From positions 1-12,523 of IMG/VR virus record IMGVR_UViG_2541047958_000002: a DNA stretch of 12,523 nt. The stretch is one strand, 5' to 3'. Shown piece by piece: positions 2,769 to 12,523 of the stretch. Position 1 is the first letter of the stretch. Every line of letters starts with the position of its first letter. The stretch is from a virus (Duplodnaviria; Heunggongvirae; Uroviricota; Caudoviricetes). The translations under genes were made by a program, and so were the position numbers. A model generated the notes under the pieces. The model had not been told where the DNA came from. It ran no database searches and saw only the letters and a list, made by a program, of their open reading frames with translations.

Positions 2769-3147
2769 TTTTGCTCGGAAGGTGATCGGCGTGCCGTGGG
2801 CTAACCGGGCCTGCTCGTTCGATAGGGTCGACTGCTGGGGCTTGTGCGTGCTGTATTACCGGCACGTTCTCGGCATTGAACTGCACCAGACGCCGGACTA
2901 CGAAGCCGGTGAGGACTTCTTCACCTGCTATCAAAGTGATGTCGTTTTCTGGCACCCGGTGGATAAGCCGGTCGAGGGCGGGATATTCGTCGGGTACCGC
3001 GGCGCGCAACCGGCGCATGTTGGCCTGGTACTGAACCGGCAGGCGCTGCACTCGCGCGGCGAGAACGGAAGCGTACGCATGGACTCGTTGCTGGTCATTC
3101 AGCGGGCATTCACCAAAGTGGAGTTTTTCGAATATGGCGCTGGTTGA
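2731..3147 (+). CDS. NlpC/P60-family peptidase domain protein, phage tail protein K-like (138 aa; start uncertain)
   Basis: Contains 'DCWGL' (catalytic-Cys context of NlpC/P60, cf. DCSGL) and a later 'HVGLV' His motif. It overlaps the upstream ORF by 38 nt if the ATG at 2731 is used; GTG at 2791 preceded by GAAGGTGA is an alternative start. It is shorter than typical K proteins and has no JAB/MPN region. Confidence 0.55.
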
Positions 3148-5611
3148 GATATCGAATTTTCCAGGAACGCCTAAGCTGCGTTGCAGGGTGCCAAACGGCA
3201 CCCTTTTTTATGACTGGCTGGCGGCCAATGATGGTAACTTTCACCGCGATCTGCTGATCGTCCGCAACGGCGTAAAGTTGGGCGAAGATGATGAGCTGGC
3301 GTTTGAGCTATGCGAACTGGACACCGTCCAGATATTCGACCAGCCGAAGGGCATCATTGGCGACATTCTCAGCCCGATCTTCAAAGTTGTCGGCGCGGTA
3401 TTCTCTTTCCTTGCGCCAAAGCCGGCGATCGCCAATACAGGCGGCAACACGATTGACTCGCCAAACAATAGCCTGACCGGCCAGACGAATACGGCGCGCG
3501 TCTACAAAGCAAAACCGGACATCTACGGACAAATCCGTTCGTTCCCGGACCTGATTCAGGAGTCGCTTTTCGAATACGTGCGCCAGAGCGACACGGATGG
3601 CGGCCTGAAGTACGTTACTGAGTGGATGTGCATCGGGATCGGCAAATATGATTACGAGTCTGTGCGTTATTCAGAGTCCAGCCTAGGAAGTATGGCCGGT
3701 GCAGAGTTCCAGTTTTACCAGCCGGGTGAAGTGATCCCTACCATCAACGAAGGCTACGGGTTCGACGACGTGGATGGCCAGGAAGTGCCCGGGCAAAACG
3801 AATCGGATAATTTCCCGATCGAGACTGCTACGGCTACTACGGTTGTGAGCGGAACTTACTCCGGCGGGCAGATTGCGGTAAAAATTATCAAGCAGGCTGA
3901 GTTTGATTACTTCATGGGCCTGGTCCTGCCGCACGCCGTTACTTTTACGATTAACGTCACCTACAGCACGCCAACCGGCAACGTAACGCAGGATGTCGAT
4001 TTCTCCGGCACGCTGATATCGGCTGTCGAAACAAACGACGGCGCGGTGGTTAACCCGGTCCGGTGGTACACATTCACGATGAGGGATCTAATTGGCCCTC
4101 CTGACGTGCCGGCAACGGCGACTATTAACACGACGAAGTTCATCCTTAACGATAACGAAGCGCTAGTGGTAGGCCCGTTCTTCTCGCCGGTCGAATCTGC
4201 CCAGTTATGGCTGCACACTCAGGTGCAGCTGGGCGGCAAAAAGTCCGCTGACTGGAAGGTCACGATCTGGAAAATTGACGATTACTACAACCAGGTGCCG
4301 GGTACTCAGCAGACGTTCACGTATCATCAGGGGACGCCGCACAAATCATCGAGCGAAGTATTTTACCGTACCGATAAGCTGACGCCGACCGGCGGTTTCG
4401 GCAAGTACGCTATTAACTTCCAGCGCACAGATAACTCGAGTGATGCCTCTATCCTGAAGGTTGAGGAGATCCACTCGGTCAACGTCAGAACCAACGTCGT
4501 GCATCCAACCGATACGCTGGTGCGCGTGAAGGTAAGGGCGACGGAGAACGCCCTGGGCAGCCGTGACCGCAAGTACAACGCACTGGTGACGCGTCAGACC
4601 ATCAGTTACAACCTGACGACGCAATCGGTGGATTACACCCTGCGGGCCTCGCGCTCGTTCGCTGATGCAGTGGCGCATACCTGGCTGATTATGGGCGAGC
4701 AGCCGGTAAGTAGCATTGACCTGTACGGGCTGTACTCGATTGCCGAAAGTCTGCCGGATGAGCGCCTGGGTTACTTCGACTACACGTTTGACGACGAGAA
4801 CGATTCGTTGGGCGACAGGGTGCAGGCTATCTGCAATGCGGCCTCTGTCATTGCGTACTGGGACGATGGCGTGCTGACGTTTACTCGCGATCAGAAGGTT
4901 GAGTACCCGGCGGCCGTATTCAACCGGGCCAATATGAAGACGGACGAGTACAAAATGACGTACGAAGCCACTCTTCCTGGCGGCTATGACGGCGTGCAGG
5001 TGTCCTACGTTCATCCGACAACCAACAACAAGACGTACATCAACTACCGCGTGCTGAACGGCGCTATCGTCGAGCAGGAAGCGGAGAACCCGAACAAAAT
5101 CGATATAGTCGGCTTCCGTAACGAGTATCAGGCGCGGGAACGCGCGCTGCGCGAAACGAAGCGCCTTATCTACTCCCGGGTGAAGATGAACGCCAAAGTG
5201 TTTGAGGACGGGATCATGCAGGTCGGTAGCGTCGTGCAGATAGCGGATATCTACGACAGCAACCAGCAGCAGGGATACATCACAGGCCGCGCCGGGAATA
5301 GCTTTGATACAAGCGAGCCAATCGCGTTTACCGGCTCGATGTATGTCCTGGTGACCGACAGCCTGGGCAACCCGACTCTGCGCTATCCGGCGACGGCACG
5401 CGCCGACACGAAGTACGGATTCACCGCGGCAATACCCGACATTCAACTTAATATCTGGAACGGAGACACCGTGCAGCTCCCGTCGCGCTACCTCATAGCA
5501 ACGGTGGAGGAGCTGAACAGCCAACTATGGACGGTCAATAGCATCAAGCCGAACACAGATAACACGGTATCTCTGACCGTCGCGGAATACAGCGACGCCA
5601 TCTACCAATAA
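3134..5611 (+). CDS. Phage tail tip / host-specificity protein (825 aa) with a tail-assembly-protein-I-like N-terminal region and a J-like central region
   Basis: Long ORF whose ATG overlaps the upstream stop. The N-terminal about 150 aa ('...FLAPKPAIANTGGNTIDSP...YGQIR') resembles lambda gpI as recalled. Later segments ('DRVQAICNAASVIAYWDDGVLTFTRDQ', 'GFRNEYQARERALRETKRLIYSRVK...VGSVVQIADIYD') resemble conserved blocks of lambda host-specificity protein J. Codon composition matches the flanking genes. Confidence 0.75.
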   Translation: MALVEISNFPGTPKLRCRVPNGTLFYDWLAANDGNFHRDLLIVRNGVKLGEDDELAFELCELDTVQIFDQPKGIIGDILSPIFKVVGAVFSFLAPKPAIANTGGNTIDSPNNSLTGQTNTARVYKAKPDIYGQIRSFPDLIQESLFEYVRQSDTDGGLKYVTEWMCIGIGKYDYESVRYSESSLGSMAGAEFQFYQPGEVIPTINEGYGFDDVDGQEVPGQNESDNFPIETATATTVVSGTYSGGQIAVKIIKQAEFDYFMGLVLPHAVTFTINVTYSTPTGNVTQDVDFSGTLISAVETNDGAVVNPVRWYTFTMRDLIGPPDVPATATINTTKFILNDNEALVVGPFFSPVESAQLWLHTQVQLGGKKSADWKVTIWKIDDYYNQVPGTQQTFTYHQGTPHKSSSEVFYRTDKLTPTGGFGKYAINFQRTDNSSDASILKVEEIHSVNVRTNVVHPTDTLVRVKVRATENALGSRDRKYNALVTRQTISYNLTTQSVDYTLRASRSFADAVAHTWLIMGEQPVSSIDLYGLYSIAESLPDERLGYFDYTFDDENDSLGDRVQAICNAASVIAYWDDGVLTFTRDQKVEYPAAVFNRANMKTDEYKMTYEATLPGGYDGVQVSYVHPTTNNKTYINYRVLNGAIVEQEAENPNKIDIVGFRNEYQARERALRETKRLIYSRVKMNAKVFEDGIMQVGSVVQIADIYDSNQQQGYITGRAGNSFDTSEPIAFTGSMYVLVTDSLGNPTLRYPATARADTKYGFTAAIPDIQLNIWNGDTVQLPSRYLIATVEELNSQLWTVNSIKPNTDNTVSLTVAEYSDAIYQ

Positions 5612-5669: not shown

Positions 5670-8102
5670 ATGGCTACGCAACCTACAAACTTGCCTGTTC
5701 CAAGCGAATCACCACGCGACCTGAAGTTCAACGCCGGGAAAATTGATGAATTTGTAACTTCCCTGGCTGAATGGTATGTGGACCGCTTCGGAATAAAGCA
5801 TTACACCATCGAAGGACTGAAGAATCTGGTACTGCAGCAGATTTATAATCTCGGCTGGAATCCGGTTGGAACATTCCAGGGCGGTGCAACTCTGACAGCG
5901 GCTGGTGACATCATCCAGGACACAAGCACGGGTGTATGGTATCGCTGGGATAACCTGGCAACACTGCCTAAAGTTGTTCCTGCTGGCTCAACTCCTGCAT
6001 CATCTGGTGGGATCGGAGAAGGTAAGTGGCTCGCCGTTGATGTGAGTGATGTGCTTAGAAAGGAGCTGGCTGAACCTGGTGGTGCTGGCATGATGGGTTA
6101 TGACGACTTTGAGTCTTATCAGGATGGTACTGTTGGCAGTGCCATTAAGGATCAGAACTTCAGAAAAAAAATAATCTACAAACTTCCATTTCAGTTCACT
6201 GGGTATTCTGATGCACTGGCGGCAATTGGAGCTGGAAGCATCATATACCCGCAGGGTGCTGACTATGATGATGATGGTCTACTCTTCATTAACTATGTGC
6301 CTAATGCTGGAGGGTCGCTTAGGGTAATAGTTGTTTATAACCAGGCAGGAGAGCAAGTAACGTGGTTTTATAGTCCAAACAGTAGTAATCAGTCTGTGGC
6401 TATATATGGCGGAAGCTCATCACGTAGATTGTATGACAGACGTCTTGGGGATGATTTTGTTTATTATTATGACATAACCACATTACCCGCAGCAGGTAGC
6501 ACGCTTTCAGGGCACACAATAACGACAATTCAGTCGGCTGGATCACATATGTGCATTGAGGGTAATTTACTCTTCTGCACATTAAACGCGACACCGATAG
6601 GAACATCGCAGTCGCAGACGGTTGTAAATTCGTACCGTGTTGATACTGGTGAGAAGCAGGGAACTATAAATGTCTCCCAGATGTTGACAGGGTTTGCAAC
6701 TCCAGAGCTTTCGCCAACCTACTATTACAGGGTATGGAAAATTCAAGGTTTGGCATACAAGAATGGAATCCTCCATATTGGGGTTGGTGGGAGCTATCGC
6801 CCTACATTAGATGATGCAAAATATCCTGTGCATGATTACGGCGTCCTCCGAGTGTCACTCTCTGGTGAGTTAATAGACCACTCTGTTGTGAAATCAGATA
6901 AGTTGATGACATATCTGGCATCAAACGGTTGCACCGTCTCAAGAACAGAGTCAGAGGGATGTTTCAAGCACCCTGACGGCACTATCCATTCAATTCTTAT
7001 TGGTGATATGGCTGAATCATCTCCTAGCACACCCAATGGCATTGTTATAATGAGGGAGTTTTCACGGGATGGATTTAACATGCTGGATGCCGCTTCCGGA
7101 TATTGTCCTCTCCCAACGTATGGATTTAATCGACTTATGCGATCTGAGCAGGGGGCATTGTGCGATCCCGTATTAAACACAGTATTTAGTAGCGTAACTC
7201 AGATTCTTGATTTAATGGCTTCATTAAACTTAACTGAGTTCTCATGGTTTTCAACCATAGCACCTTCACTAACCACAATACCCGGCCTTAATTACGTAAT
7301 AGGACAAATCTACCATGTTACCAATCTTAACAATGGAGGATTTGTTATTGAATCTTCTGGTACTGCGCTTGGGATGGAAGTGTATAGCGTAGTTGGAAGT
7401 CTTGGATCATGGACTGCTACAAGGCGTTCCATTTCAGGTTCAAAGATTAATATTAATAATGCAGGTAGCTTAGGACAAATTTCATTTACAGCATCTACAG
7501 GTAAAGAAGTTGGTATTGCCCAAATAAGCTATACAGGGACTTCTACACCTCTTGTTATCGGCTCTGGAGGAACTTTAAACCCTAATGCTATTTTCTTCTT
7601 CACAAATCCGACAGTGACAAGTGAAAGTGGGGGAACTCAATCTTTTCAGATTTACAATAATCAGGTACTACCTGGCGTCTCTAGCGCGCAGTCTAACGGG
7701 AGTGCGTCATTTAAATGGACTCAGTTCTACGCCGATTCTGGTTCCATTAACACATCTGACAGAAGGAAGAAGACAGATTTCGAGGATATAAGTGAAGCCG
7801 AAAAGCGTGTAGCTATCAAGATTAAGGGAATGATTTGTCGGTACAGAATGAAGGATGCGGTAGCTATTAAAGGCGATGGCGCAAGATATCATATAGGTGC
7901 AATTGTTCAGGATGTTATCTCTGCGTTCGAGGATGAAGGACTAGACCCCATGCTTTACGGTATGGTTTGTTATGATAAGTGGGATAAGAAGGAACCAATA
8001 TATGATGAAAATGGTGCTATGATATTCTCAGGTTGCGAAGCCGGTGATGGTTACTCTTTAAGATATGATGAGATGTTATGTTTCATTATCTCAGCCATTT
8101 GA
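5670..8102 (+). CDS. Tail fiber / tailspike protein (810 aa) with a C-terminal intramolecular chaperone (peptidase S74-type) self-cleaving domain
   Basis: The N-terminal about 150 aa carry a 'YRWDNLATLPKVVPAGSTPASSGGIGEGKW' block that I recall from endosialidase-type and related tail fibers. The C-terminal about 115 aa ('TSDRRKK...ARYHIGAIVQDVISAF...MVCYDKW') match the Ser-x4-Lys autoproteolytic chaperone domain. The central 500 aa are unassigned and AT-rich. Confidence 0.85.
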   Translation: MATQPTNLPVPSESPRDLKFNAGKIDEFVTSLAEWYVDRFGIKHYTIEGLKNLVLQQIYNLGWNPVGTFQGGATLTAAGDIIQDTSTGVWYRWDNLATLPKVVPAGSTPASSGGIGEGKWLAVDVSDVLRKELAEPGGAGMMGYDDFESYQDGTVGSAIKDQNFRKKIIYKLPFQFTGYSDALAAIGAGSIIYPQGADYDDDGLLFINYVPNAGGSLRVIVVYNQAGEQVTWFYSPNSSNQSVAIYGGSSSRRLYDRRLGDDFVYYYDITTLPAAGSTLSGHTITTIQSAGSHMCIEGNLLFCTLNATPIGTSQSQTVVNSYRVDTGEKQGTINVSQMLTGFATPELSPTYYYRVWKIQGLAYKNGILHIGVGGSYRPTLDDAKYPVHDYGVLRVSLSGELIDHSVVKSDKLMTYLASNGCTVSRTESEGCFKHPDGTIHSILIGDMAESSPSTPNGIVIMREFSRDGFNMLDAASGYCPLPTYGFNRLMRSEQGALCDPVLNTVFSSVTQILDLMASLNLTEFSWFSTIAPSLTTIPGLNYVIGQIYHVTNLNNGGFVIESSGTALGMEVYSVVGSLGSWTATRRSISGSKININNAGSLGQISFTASTGKEVGIAQISYTGTSTPLVIGSGGTLNPNAIFFFTNPTVTSESGGTQSFQIYNNQVLPGVSSAQSNGSASFKWTQFYADSGSINTSDRRKKTDFEDISEAEKRVAIKIKGMICRYRMKDAVAIKGDGARYHIGAIVQDVISAFEDEGLDPMLYGMVCYDKWDKKEPIYDENGAMIFSGCEAGDGYSLRYDEMLCFIISAI

Positions 8103-8738: not shown

Positions 8739-9710
8739 TTAGACTACTCTTCGCAAAATCGGTATTGCAGTAAATATTTTGACAATGATAATTGAAGATG
8801 CAATGTAAAATACTGCCGCCAGAGGAATGCCCCATACATAATTTGTAATTGGCAGGTACTTCCATGAAGTGAAAATAATTAATGGGTGAACTAGGTAGAT
8901 GCCAAATGCATGCTTTGAAATTATTTTTATTATTGGGTTTGTTAAGTTAGATATGTTCTTAGCATAACCAATGCAAGCAAATGTCGTAGCTATCGCCGTA
9001 ATGGCTATAATCGGGCTGAAGTTCTTCAAGCTCATTCCTTGATATTCGCCATGAACTATCCCTTTGTTAACATAAATGGTAATAACGGAAAGTGTCAATG
9101 ATAGGATAGCAAATACAATTCTGTTCTTAATTATCAAGTCTTCCTTACGTGCAGCTATGTATCCTGCAAAAACATAGAGCATTAAATAACTTGCAAATGG
9201 AACGCTTATCTTTGGAACGGGTATTCCTATTGCATTAAGCTCCGGGTATAAGGATGTGCTGTAAAACAGAATTGCGAATATCAATAGGCTATAGCGTGTT
9301 CTTATCTCTCTACATCCCATAACTATCATTGGAACAAAAAGATAAATTGCAATGTAATCGTACATAAACCAAAGGTGTATGCTTGATGGTTTCATAGGGC
9401 TAAAACTATCTATGCCTGCATTTTTAAAAATTATCAAATATGCTGCGTAAATTATCCACCAAAACGCCAGTGGAATTACAAGGAGATTTATTCCTTTAAG
9501 GATGAAGCCTTCGAATTCAATTTTTTTGTTAGCATAGAGAAAGCCGGTTATGACAATGAATATACCAATGCATTGTTTCGAAATTGCACTATAAACATTG
9601 GCCCACTCCCAGTCAGGCGCGAGTTTGGCCCCAACAGGCCCGGCGCTGGCATGCAGTAGAACTACCAATATTATTGCTATGAAACGTGCAAAGACCACTC
9701 CATAATTCAT
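8739..9710 (-). CDS. Integral-membrane acyltransferase, acyltransferase-3 (AT3) family, probable polysaccharide O-acetyltransferase (323 aa)
   Basis: Minus-strand ORF with GGAG 7-8 nt upstream of the ATG. Strongly hydrophobic multi-pass protein with an N-terminal 'FARFIAIILVVLLHA' motif typical of AT3 proteins (cf. 'LRAIAVLxVVxFH'). AT-rich codon usage. Confidence 0.8.
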   Translation of the reverse strand: MNYGVVFARFIAIILVVLLHASAGPVGAKLAPDWEWANVYSAISKQCIGIFIVITGFLYANKKIEFEGFILKGINLLVIPLAFWWIIYAAYLIIFKNAGIDSFSPMKPSSIHLWFMYDYIAIYLFVPMIVMGCREIRTRYSLLIFAILFYSTSLYPELNAIGIPVPKISVPFASYLMLYVFAGYIAARKEDLIIKNRIVFAILSLTLSVITIYVNKGIVHGEYQGMSLKNFSPIIAITAIATTFACIGYAKNISNLTNPIIKIISKHAFGIYLVHPLIIFTSWKYLPITNYVWGIPLAAVFYIASSIIIVKIFTAIPILRRVV

Positions 9711-9753: not shown

Positions 9754-11712
9754 TTATTTATTAAGCACACTTAAGATCTTATCTTTAAATCCGTTCACTG
9801 CCATCTGTGAGCCATCTTTTGATAAATGCCCCCCATCTGAATACATGATTTTGTCATTGAATATTGAACGGCAGGTTCCGTTAGAACAAAACACTTCATA
9901 CGGGTCCATGTAGTAAGTATTTCTCATTGACTGGGCAGCCTTCTTTAACATCTGATTTAGTTTGTACGAGTGAGCAGTTCTCTCTCTTACATTCAATTGT
10001 TCAGAACACGGACCTGTCGCAAATGATGGTCTAGTGATACAAGCCACCACACCATTTTTATCGCCAACCCGAGGAGGAGAACCGATAATAATCAAAGGCC
10101 TTCCTCCTGTGTCTTTTCTTAGTAACTTAAGTTGCTCGATAACATATGAATAATATTCATCTTTATCCTTAAAGATGATTTTTTCGCCAGTTTTACGGTT
10201 GGTAAGAACATCTTTTGATGTATCCCAAGAGTGCGAAATAATGAGAGGCTTACTGTTACCTTTAAGCAAGTTGTACAAGTTGCCATATTGCCCGGAGCAT
10301 AGATTGTCCGGCCCGGTCCCTGGCGTTCGGATTGAGTCTCTGCTTATTAAGCACCCATGAGCAAACAAGGTGTCAGCTTTAATATGGTTATCTTTAAAGA
10401 AATTATCCAGGCCATATGCATACTGATTGGCATAACTATCGCCAGCCACTATTACTGATGATTCCTTTACATTTAAATCACCTATTGTTTTTTTGTAGCC
10501 ATAATCGTGACCACCATATTGCTCAAAGTGATATTGGCCTGCATTCTCGGCCAAGGTTACGTATTTTTCATTAACACGCCATGTCATGCCGTTACTTTCA
10601 TAGGAGTATTTTCCTGCGAAAATCAAGATGGCAATGATTGAACCTACGCACGAATATACAGTAACAATTTTAAATTTATCGAGTTTAACGTTATGGAGTC
10701 GGAATGTTTTCTCAATACAGTAAAACGTGATCAGGGAAAAAATTGCTGTGATTATTATCATGGCAATTTTATCAATGATATCTGGCGTAGTTGCAATATA
10801 GTAGTTATAAAAAACTATCACGGGCCAATGTACAAGATACAAAGAGTAACTGATTAACCCTATGTATATGGCAACTTTGTTATCTGTTACAACTGAAACT
10901 TTAGCATTGCCAGCGTAAATGGCCATGCCCGCGCCAATACATGGGATTAATGCCATTACACCTGGGAATTGAGTTGTTTCATTGTACATAAACATGCTGA
11001 TAATAATAATTGCTATACCAGTCATGTATAGTACATTAAGAATCATACCTTTTGGCTGTTTTAATCTTTCAAGGAATACGACTATAGCCCCAACAGCAAA
11101 TTCGAATGCTCTGGATGTTGTTAGAAAATATGACTTATTAGAATCTGAAGGTAGTAGTGATTGTGAGTAAATAATGCTCACTACAAACATTATACTGATT
11201 ATAGCGATAATGCCATTTTTTGATTTTAATTTGTACGCCAACGTTAACAATAAAGGCCATACGAGATAGAATTGCTCTTCGACAGACAAAGACCATGTAT
11301 GTAGCAATGGTTTTGTGATTGATGAAGCGTCAAAGTAGTCACTACTTAACCAAAAGAAGAAGTTTGATAAAGAAATGACTGCAAATATGAGAGACTTTCC
11401 AAAATCAATCATTTGCTGCGGTGAAAATAAGAGCATGGCAGCAATTAAGCTCAGAGCACTTACAAAAAATAACGCTGGAAGAAGCCGCAATGCACGACGG
11501 GTATAAAATTGACCAAAAGTAAAAGCGTTTGATTCAAGTTGCCCAGTAATATTTCTGGTTATCAAATAGCCGCTGATAACAAAGAAAACGTCTACGCCAA
11601 CGAAACCACCAGGGAAGCTAAGCCCTATGTGGAAGAAAATCACGCCAAGGACGGCTATTGCACGTAATCCGTCAATGTCTCCACGATACTTTTTTGCGAC
11701 AACTAAGTTCAC
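9754..11712 (-). CDS. OafA-like O-acetyltransferase: N-terminal AT3 membrane domain fused to a C-terminal SGNH hydrolase-like domain (652 aa)
   Basis: Minus-strand ORF with a GTG start. The N-terminus 'DIDGLRAIAVLGVIFFHIG...VGVDVFFVISGYLIT...TWSLSVEEQFY' matches AT3 signature blocks as recalled for Salmonella OafA. The C-terminal soluble domain has SGNH-like blocks ('VAGDSYANQ', 'DGGHLS'). It sits 43 nt upstream of the 323-aa AT3 gene on the same strand, so the two are likely an operon. Confidence 0.85.
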   Translation of the reverse strand: MNLVVAKKYRGDIDGLRAIAVLGVIFFHIGLSFPGGFVGVDVFFVISGYLITRNITGQLESNAFTFGQFYTRRALRLLPALFFVSALSLIAAMLLFSPQQMIDFGKSLIFAVISLSNFFFWLSSDYFDASSITKPLLHTWSLSVEEQFYLVWPLLLTLAYKLKSKNGIIAIISIMFVVSIIYSQSLLPSDSNKSYFLTTSRAFEFAVGAIVVFLERLKQPKGMILNVLYMTGIAIIIISMFMYNETTQFPGVMALIPCIGAGMAIYAGNAKVSVVTDNKVAIYIGLISYSLYLVHWPVIVFYNYYIATTPDIIDKIAMIIITAIFSLITFYCIEKTFRLHNVKLDKFKIVTVYSCVGSIIAILIFAGKYSYESNGMTWRVNEKYVTLAENAGQYHFEQYGGHDYGYKKTIGDLNVKESSVIVAGDSYANQYAYGLDNFFKDNHIKADTLFAHGCLISRDSIRTPGTGPDNLCSGQYGNLYNLLKGNSKPLIISHSWDTSKDVLTNRKTGEKIIFKDKDEYYSYVIEQLKLLRKDTGGRPLIIIGSPPRVGDKNGVVACITRPSFATGPCSEQLNVRERTAHSYKLNQMLKKAAQSMRNTYYMDPYEVFCSNGTCRSIFNDKIMYSDGGHLSKDGSQMAVNGFKDKILSVLNK

Positions 11713-11825
11713 GAGAGAAGCCTACTAAAGTTAAAACGCGCATTTTAGTAGCTATCAGGACATGAAAAAAGAGAAAACTAGTAAATTATCAATAAACTAT
11801 ATCTACGTTCCTGAGCGAATGTGTT

Positions 11826-11834
11826 GGTGATCAC
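11826..11834. promoter_or_regulatory. GGTGATCAC palindromic motif, copy 1 (contains a Dam GATC site)
   Basis: Exact 9-mer containing the 8-bp perfect palindrome GTGATCAC. It sits in the divergent control region between the acyltransferase operon and the LexA-box promoter. Confidence 0.3.
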
Positions 11835-11882
11835 AAAACATGAGCAACTAATACAATTGTTTGCAATCCTTCAGACACATAA

Positions 11883-11891
11883 GGTGATCAC
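11883..11891. promoter_or_regulatory. GGTGATCAC palindromic motif, copy 2 (contains a Dam GATC site)
   Basis: Identical 9-mer 57 bp from copy 1, with similar A-rich 3' flanks (aaaaca / ggaaaaa). Confidence 0.3.
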
Positions 11892-11929
11892 GGAAAAATA
11901 GTATTGCCATAATTTAGAGGATAGATGTG

Positions 11930-11945
11930 CTGTATTTATATACAG
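11930..11945. promoter_or_regulatory. LexA (SOS) box, CTGT-N8-ACAG
   Basis: CTGTATTTATATACAG matches the E. coli LexA consensus CTGTATATATATACAG at 15 of 16 positions. It overlaps a candidate -10 (TATATA 11937-11942); TTTAGA at 11913-11918 is a possible -35. A T7 run follows. Confidence 0.6.
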
Positions 11946-11979
11946 TTTTTTTGGGGCTATATGCCGCATCGTTCAAATA

Positions 11980-12201
11980 TTGAGATCGCCTTCATGGGCC
12001 TCGATTGTGCATGAAAGGTCAGGCCGCAGGATTGTGAAAACTGCTGATTTTGTTCAGGAACTTCTAAAGGTCAGCTGGGACTTCAGCATGGAAGAGGCGA
12101 ACCTTTGGATAGCAAGGTACACAACCTGCTTCAAAGACATCACTCCTGATCACGGGGAGAACAAAACCTGGTTCATGTACAACCCGAATGGAGGGCTTTG
12201 A
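11980..12201 (+). CDS. Hypothetical small protein (73 aa; start uncertain, TTG in the track)
   Basis: ORF lying between the LexA box and the UmuD'-like ORF. Its stop (12199-12201) is 1 nt from the next ATG. No canonical ATG start with an RBS was found, so the call is weak. Confidence 0.3.
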   Translation: MRSPSWASIVHERSGRRIVKTADFVQELLKVSWDFSMEEANLWIARYTTCFKDITPDHGENKTWFMYNPNGGL

Positions 12202-12202
12202 T

Positions 12203-12523
12203 ATGGGGTTCCCAAGTCCAGCAAGGGATTACATCGAAAGTAAGCTTAATGTGAATGTTATATGCGGAGTCACCACTAACAGCCTAGTGATTGAGACATC
12301 GCAAGGATTTGCTGTGATAGAAAAGGGCATGAAGCCATCGCCAGACAGTACCTACCTGATTTCGTATTCAGGAGGTTGTCACTTTGCCAAACGTAGAGGC
12401 GATGCGCTGATAACGATAGATGGTGAAGTACTTGAAGGAGAGGTTCTGGATGAGGTGGATGTGAAGGGAATTCTGACCTACCTGATTAACCGGGCGGTGG
12501 ATGATGATAACCCGGTGATTTAA
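12203..12523 (+). CDS. UmuD'-like protein (S24 LexA/UmuD superfamily), beginning at the GFPSPA cleavage-site motif (106 aa; track ORF starts at 12188)
   Basis: The ATG at 12203 is preceded by GGAGGG (12190-12195). The product starts 'MGFPSPARDYIE', matching the 'C/GFPSPAxDY' auto-cleavage junction of UmuD/MucA. Downstream blocks 'STYLISYSGGCH' and 'RRGDALITIDGEV' align loosely with 'ATYFVKASGDSM' and 'HGDIVIAAVDGEF' of UmuD. The protein is shorter than UmuD. The stop is at the window end. Confidence 0.5.
   Translation: MGFPSPARDYIESKLNVNVICGVTTNSLVIETSQGFAVIEKGMKPSPDSTYLISYSGGCHFAKRRGDALITIDGEVLEGEVLDEVDVKGILTYLINRAVDDDNPVI

Follow-up and report, generated by a model that had tools for sequence, protein, structure and literature searches.

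What controls the acyltransferase genes at the end of this E. coli prophage, and do the two identical GATC-centred palindromes upstream of them take part in that control? A first-pass annotation of the DNA had proposed a Dam-dependent epigenetic or phase-variable switch like that of gtr or opvAB, and had offered operators for a dimeric regulator as the alternative. Having compared the window (the whole 12,523-bp stretch that was analysed) with homologous loci, we lean towards another reading, in which the region would be a cAMP-CRP-activated (class I) promoter of a prophage O-antigen acyltransferase moron; as control elements go, a CRP-type operator is ordinary.

The window is the end of an E. 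coli prophage, in which tail protein and tailspike genes are followed by two acyltransferase genes on the minus strand:

3134-5611, tail protein gene
5670-8102, tailspike gene, with Tail_spike_N and Peptidase_S74 domains
8739..9710, minus strand, second acyltransferase gene (323 aa, Acyl_transf_3), 43 bp downstream of the 652-aa gene
9754..11712, minus strand, gene of a 652-aa OafA-like acyltransferase with a GTG start and Acyl_transf_3 (AT3) and SGNH domains

The 652-aa acyltransferase, a protein found in identical form in many E. coli assemblies, is the product of the gene that the intergenic region controls; the 323-aa gene is probably co-transcribed with it, and the same two-acyltransferase arrangement is present in L135, the closest of the diverged loci considered below. 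The slot is the classic position of an O-antigen modification moron, which made the hypothesis of phase variation reasonable a priori, and the O-antigen is likely to be the receptor of the prophage's own tailspike. In a related prophage of E. coli Z142-3 (L002, 1989-5045) the slot is occupied by gtrA, gtrB and a DUF6056 GtrC, so that gtr and acyltransferase cassettes are interchangeable for O-antigen modification. The region upstream of gtrA in Z142-3 is only ~115 bp long and has a single GATC, and thus is without the four-GATC signature of phase variation in Salmonella.

The sequence GGTGATCAC has exactly two matches in the window, both of them inside the 248-bp divergent intergenic region (34% G+C) that is flanked by the acyltransferase GTG (11712, minus) and the ATG of a small gene (11961, plus):

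11826..11834, proximal GGTGATCAC copy, which reads GTGATCACC on the acyltransferase sense strand
11883..11891, distal GGTGATCAC copy, near the edge of the acyltransferase promoter module

The two copies are 57 bp apart from start to start, and in each of them a GATC (11829-11832 and 11886-11889) forms the centre of a perfect 8-bp palindrome, GTGATCAC, just as the first-pass annotation had described. In dinucleotide shuffles of the whole window, GGTGATCAC had a mean of 0.10 matches and reached two or more in 2 of 200. When the intergenic region was shuffled, some exact 9-mer direct repeat arose in 16% of cases and at least two GATCs in 17%; two GATCs within one common 9-mer context arose in 0.04%. 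As an event specified in advance the pair is therefore unlikely; the motif was chosen after inspection, however, so these statistics alone are no proof of function. The two GATCs are the only ones in the intergenic region, and the next (11984) lies within the plus-strand coding region. Across the whole window GATC is scarce, with 33 observed against ~50 expected from dinucleotide shuffles (199 of 200 shuffles had at least 33).

On its other side the intergenic region meets the module that closes the prophage:

11930..11945, plus strand, LexA (SOS) box CTGTATTTATATACAG, the sole CTGT-N8-ACAG in the window
11961..12523, plus strand, divergent SOS-boxed gene pair, which marks the prophage end

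The LexA box stands 15 nt upstream of the small-gene ATG (11961). At the equivalent place E. coli Z142-3 has a perfect box, CTGTATATATATACAG, and in E. coli PK5 the box is degenerate and ends in ACAT. The end module of such prophages, which is UmuD-like, looks SOS-regulated. The first gene of the pair is small and is annotated 'DNA polymerase V' in PK5. In the window it is frameshifted by a 1-nt insertion at ~11994 (within 11961-12201; TTCATGGGCC in place of the TTCAGGGCC of PK5 and Z142-3), after which the ATG-11961 frame ends after 17 codons and only the TTG-11980 ORF is left; the same insertion is found in L224. The second gene encodes a 111-aa protein with a weakly UmuD/HumD-like N-terminus, annotated as an S24/S26 family peptidase in PK5. 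Homology to the pol V-like module of other prophages, including Z142-3, begins at ~11923, which assigns the SOS box to the plus-strand module and both GGTGATCAC copies to the acyltransferase module.

Several further features of this junction may be recorded. TTGCCA at 11904-11909 (5/6 against the -35 consensus) lies 18 bp upstream of a TGCTGT (TACTGT in PK5) that overlaps the LexA box, and the two may form an SOS-regulated plus-strand promoter; its -35 would then come from the acyltransferase module, and the distal GGTGATCAC copy would lie ~50 bp upstream of its start. In the Citrobacter-type homologous loci L139 and L143 an SOS box likewise adjoins the acyltransferase. Insertion sequences strike the acyltransferase/SOS module repeatedly: in L226 (1023-2243) the SOS-box side has given way to an ISL3-family element ~225 bp upstream of the acyltransferase, in PK5 (L001, 10874-11854) an IS5 splits the second acyltransferase of a prophage that is now a remnant beside tRNA-Asn, and in CUPF12 (hit H2) an IS1 lies within the first acyltransferase.

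If the palindromes were the regulatory elements, one would look for them in related promoters. Within E. coli both GGTGATCAC copies are invariant in 12 loci, including PK5 and ten further contigs; the E. coli loci are at least 99% identical over the acyltransferase-side module, so retention of both copies there says nothing either way. The ten further contigs, which encode the identical protein, differ from the window by 0-1 upstream bases, except for L226 with its insertion sequence beyond ~-225, and the complete E. coli genome collection holds just two near-identical copies of the module. Among species-representative genomes, metagenome contigs and viral contigs the only relatives have ≤45% identity, and in the GenBank phage collection nothing matches the module at the DNA level and protein matches are at only ~31%. 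The informative loci came from the protein search, in which the acyltransferase had matches of 86% (P0002), 77% (P0003) and 75% (P0004) identity. The loci of these closer homologues, L135 (86%), L136/L137 (77%) and L138 (75%; member of a cluster that includes Pseudocitrobacter), stand in other genomic contexts and have a recognisably homologous promoter. In a 54%-identity group from Citrobacter and Morganella (L139-L143) the promoter is unrelated and has no GGTGATCAC and no more than one GATC.

Over the upstream 200 bp, identity is 49-57% among the window, L135 and the L136/L138 pair (L136 and L138 share 79%), a divergence that makes any conservation in this promoter informative. Across 213 columns and four lineages there are two islands of conservation and no more. 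The first and most conserved is ATAGnTACTA(A/G)AATGC, 28-43 nt before the acyltransferase start codon; the second is TTTTGTGA-N6-(A/G)CACA. In the window they hold two candidate elements:

11742..11747, minus strand, candidate -10 hexamer TAAAAT of the acyltransferase promoter (TAGAAT in homologues), within the first island
11820..11835, minus strand, candidate cAMP-CRP operator TGTGATCACCAACACA, a 9/10 match to the core, with the T-rich 5' flank TTTTGTGA

On the sense strand the dyad of the second island reads TGTGATCACCAACACA in the window, TGTGACCGTGAACACA in L135, TGTGAGCATTCACACA in L136 and TGTGAGCATTCGCACA in L138. Its half-sites are identical across the four lineages in 9 of 10 columns and its spacer in 1 of 6, against a background of 29%.

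Neither GATC, and no GGTGATCAC, is found in the control regions of L135, L136/L137 and L138 that share this promoter. At the place of the proximal copy the homologues read TGTGACCG and TGTGAGCA. The GTGA of the proximal copy is part of the conserved TGTGA half-site and its TCACC lies in the variable spacer, so that the GATC is composed of GA from TGTGA followed by two bases at the beginning of the spacer; the latter are CC or GC in the homologues, which therefore have no GATC there. In the stretch of the distal copy 2 of 10 columns are conserved, and the diverged homologues have nothing similar and no GATC. The first-pass annotation had itself named lack of conservation in related elements as evidence against a Dam switch, and the comparison comes down on that side.

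What is conserved around the proximal GATC resembles the CRP core consensus TGTGA-N6-TCACA (PMC2504297): TGTGATCACCAACACA (minus strand, 11835 to 11820) has one mismatch to it, and across the lineages the first base of the right half-site is A or G, not T. Conserved half-sites around a free spacer are the footprint one would expect of a dimeric CRP-family operator, and CRP itself is the likely binder of the proximal dyad. The ICAP consensus AAATGTGATCTAGATCACATTT itself contains GATC (PMC2504297), so that a GATC within a good CRP site needs no separate explanation. The proximal GATC would on these grounds be a lineage-specific by-product of a spacer that follows the CRP consensus (TGTGATC) and not a conserved regulatory element.

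One could nevertheless suppose that nothing here is regulatory, both GGTGATCAC copies and the CRP-like dyad being fortuitous in an AT-rich promoter region. The ease with which 9-mer repeats arise in shuffles of the intergenic region would fit, as would the number of matches to TGTGA-N6-TCACA with ≤2 mismatches, at or below chance in the window (3 against 6 expected). A one-mismatch match to the CRP core is thus not rare, and the case depends on the footprint in four lineages, of which L136 and L138 are mutually close. Chance does not readily account, however, for the disparity between half-site and spacer columns at one of the only two peaks in 213 columns, nor for an indel between lineages that preserves helical phase (see below), and we consider this explanation unlikely.

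It could also be that both copies are operators, 57 bp apart, for a dimeric regulator that recognises GTGATCAC itself, such as a repressor encoded by the prophage. The presence of a perfect palindrome in two exact copies within a single control region invites this view, and the proximal copy, by reading of the sequence, extends to a 14-bp near-palindrome, TTGGTGATCACAAA. The axis of the conserved dyad (11827.5), however, lies 3 bp from that of the palindrome (11830.5), which points to selection on the CRP-type dyad; TGTGA and (A/G)CACA persist in the homologues and the palindrome's TCAC half does not, and none of them has a counterpart of the distal copy. There is no other GTGATCAC in the window, one-mismatch matches to it are at chance level (6 against 4.6 expected), no gene for a DNA-binding regulator was identified beside the locus, and 57 bp, or ~5.4 turns, would set two sites on opposite faces of the helix. 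We regard operators of this kind as very unlikely. The first-pass annotation's notion of operators for a dimeric regulator survives in part: the proximal copy does lie within a conserved dyad, TGTGA-N6-ACACA, but the dyad is not centred on the palindrome, and the distal copy bears no sign of an operator.

The geometry of the promoter is compatible with activation by CRP. Taking the start 7 nt after the conserved TAnAAT -10, we infer that transcription begins near 11735. In the window the -35 is a poor one (TTTTCA or TTTTTT), as is usual for activator-dependent promoters; L136 has a better one (TTTACA, 16-bp spacer). A scan with the sigma-70 consensus did not report this promoter, its sole match being a plus-strand ATCACA-16-TACAAT at chance level. 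From the dyad centre to the predicted start the distance is -92.5 in the window, -91.5 in L135, and -80.5 in both L136 and L138, the lineages being separated by an indel of 11-12 bp, or about one helical turn. CRP acts at class I promoters from positions near -61.5, -71.5, -82.5 and -92.5 (PMC4132738); the dyads would thus lie near -92.5 and -82.5, with -80.5 being 2 bp off the latter for a start placed from the hexamer. In model promoters, CRP at -92.5 gives only weak class I activation (PMC4132738). Around the candidate -10 and start there is an inverted repeat with perfect 8-bp arms, CTACTAAA/TTTAGTAG (11722-11729, 11744-11751), that is not conserved in L135.

We thus envision that a CRP dimer binds TGTGATCACCAACACA ~92 bp upstream of the predicted start, or one helical turn closer to it in the Pseudocitrobacter-like homologues, and that the bound CRP would, through the alpha C-terminal domain, draw RNA polymerase to a promoter with a good -10 (TAAAAT) and a poor -35; O-antigen acylation would thereby be tied to carbon-source status. 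Should this be so, the prophage links modification of its host's O-antigen to the carbon/cAMP state rather than to a stochastic epigenetic switch, which would be a modest addition to what is known of the regulation of lysogenic-conversion genes.

Activation by CRP leaves the exact nine-base identity of the distal copy to chance, at the 0.04% of shuffles given above. Fortuitous recurrence of the motif is the likeliest account of this copy, which would otherwise amount to no more than a stray CRP half-site; in neither case would it have a conserved role. On neither strand, examined by eye, is there a second CRP half-site to pair with it at N6 spacing, and a second full CRP site there was rejected because ACATA, AAAAA and TATGT, the pentamers in partner position, do not fit.

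Repeats of other kinds in the region were considered as well. An imperfect direct repeat, AGAGAAGCCTACTAAA at 11714-11729 and AGAGAAAACTAGTAAA at 11770-11785, with a spacing of 56 bp, close to that of the GATC pair, prompted the idea of an ancient ~56-bp tandem duplication, which we rejected (lag-56 match z = 1.2, family-wise p 0.64, nothing found by TRF). A 27-nt imperfect inverted repeat (70% complementary; 11782-11808 and 11890-11916) brackets both GGTGATCAC copies and probably arose by chance. An invertible segment was set aside as well, the repeat being AT-rich and weak with 81 bp between its arms, and no recombinase gene being identified in the ORFs examined. A search for a structured 5'-UTR or known RNA in the region gave no Rfam match up to E = 1.

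Among known systems, the Dam switches of the gtr and opvAB kind come first to mind. The likeness is one of gene class and position: these too govern O-antigen modification encoded on prophages or islands, AT3-SGNH acetyltransferases included, with GATCs upstream of the operon, and the acyltransferase slot is that of gtrABC in Z142-3. The acetylating gtrC of Salmonella Typhi (family 2) is phase-variable through Dam and OxyR (PMC5364305). The gtr switch, however, has four GATCs in two pairs (-110/-97 and -46/-33 in P22) and three OxyR half-sites; its GATCs lie within the half-sites ATAGnTnnnAnCTAT, which match at 9-10/10, and the proximal pair is in the core promoter, with GATC4 at -33 (PMC2909390). 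In switches of the gtr/opvAB type generally, three or four half-sites permit OxyR to occupy alternative positions, and OxyR bound over the core promoter acts as a repressor; the signature is shared by homologous control regions that phase-vary, methylation is reciprocal between ON and OFF cells, and switching needs dam and oxyR. The window instead has two single GATCs, centred ~95 and ~152 bp upstream of the predicted start and thus outside the core promoter. The OxyR half-sites that the first-pass annotation had suggested looking for around them did not emerge from our scan: no half-site that overlaps a GATC scores above 5/10, and the best in the region, 8/10 at 11921-11935, is away from both and is equalled or exceeded in 26% of shuffles. 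A family 3 gtr region in which one GATC is altered to GAAA showed no phase variation (PMC5364305).

The other classical precedent, pap, involves a different regulator. The pap switch has two GATCs ~102 bp apart, in ACGATC context; they lie in Lrp sites, and the co-regulators are PapI and PapB. The window resembles it in having a surface-structure operon with two GATCs upstream, but their spacing is 57 bp and their context GGTGATCAC, the neighbouring genes are acyltransferase and UmuD-like genes, and no papI/papB-like gene was identified near the acyltransferase locus. Judged by its sequence, then, the locus lacks each of the defining features of known Dam switches that we tested, and, with the motif absent from homologous promoters as well, classical heritable phase variation of the gtr/opvAB/agn43 (OxyR) or pap (Lrp) kind is in our view highly improbable, its two identical palindromes and fitting gene class notwithstanding. 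A wider lesson may be drawn: because the GATC in TGTGATC belongs to the CRP consensus, paired GATC palindromes upstream of O-antigen genes should not be called gtr-like without OxyR or Lrp sites and conservation.

A closer parallel to the embedded GATC is found at Salmonella dgoR and nanA, where GATCs lie within predicted CRP sites at under-methylated loci that show ON/OFF subpopulations; methylation at nanA is crp-dependent, and nearby 'outsider' GATCs are possibly involved (PMC7708049). As in those promoters, the proximal GATC (11829-11832) lies inside a CRP-type site, covering the final GA of TGTGA and the two spacer bases that follow it, and the site shares the 10-mer TTTTGTGATC with the predicted dgoR CRP site, TTTTGTGATCTAAATTGTA (PMC7708049). 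By analogy, CRP at the proximal site might occlude Dam and leave this GATC under-methylated, while methylation would weaken CRP binding; expression of the acyltransferases could then be heterogeneous or bistable and depend on Dam and the carbon source, in the E. coli lineage only, with the distal GATC perhaps contributing via a higher-order complex. A preprint names CRP as a methylation-sensitive factor, and the shared 9-bp context of the two GATCs, so improbable by chance, would find a reason. On the other hand, the proximal GATC is absent from the homologous promoters: three diverged homologues keep the CRP-like site without either GATC, which places Dam outside the conserved design and would make any Dam input recent and lineage-specific. 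The distal GATC, moreover, has no recognisable protein site, and the consensus by itself would lead one to expect a lone GATC in a CRP spacer. Interplay of CRP and Dam at the proximal site therefore seems to us a minor prospect, and it is quite unlikely that the conserved CRP operator, its acquired spacer GATC and the second palindrome 57 bp upstream together make up a CRP-and-Dam bistable switch independent of OxyR and Lrp. If they did, acylation of the O-antigen would differ between individual cells and follow the carbon source, and the locus would place phage-receptor modification under epigenetic control with a new architecture.

The class I CRP promoter that we favour finds its counterpart in the lac P1 type, with which the acyltransferase promoter shares a 16-bp dyad with T-rich flanks, conserved half-sites around a free spacer, and a poor -35; it differs in the genes that would be placed under such control, which are prophage O-antigen-type acyltransferases and not catabolic genes.
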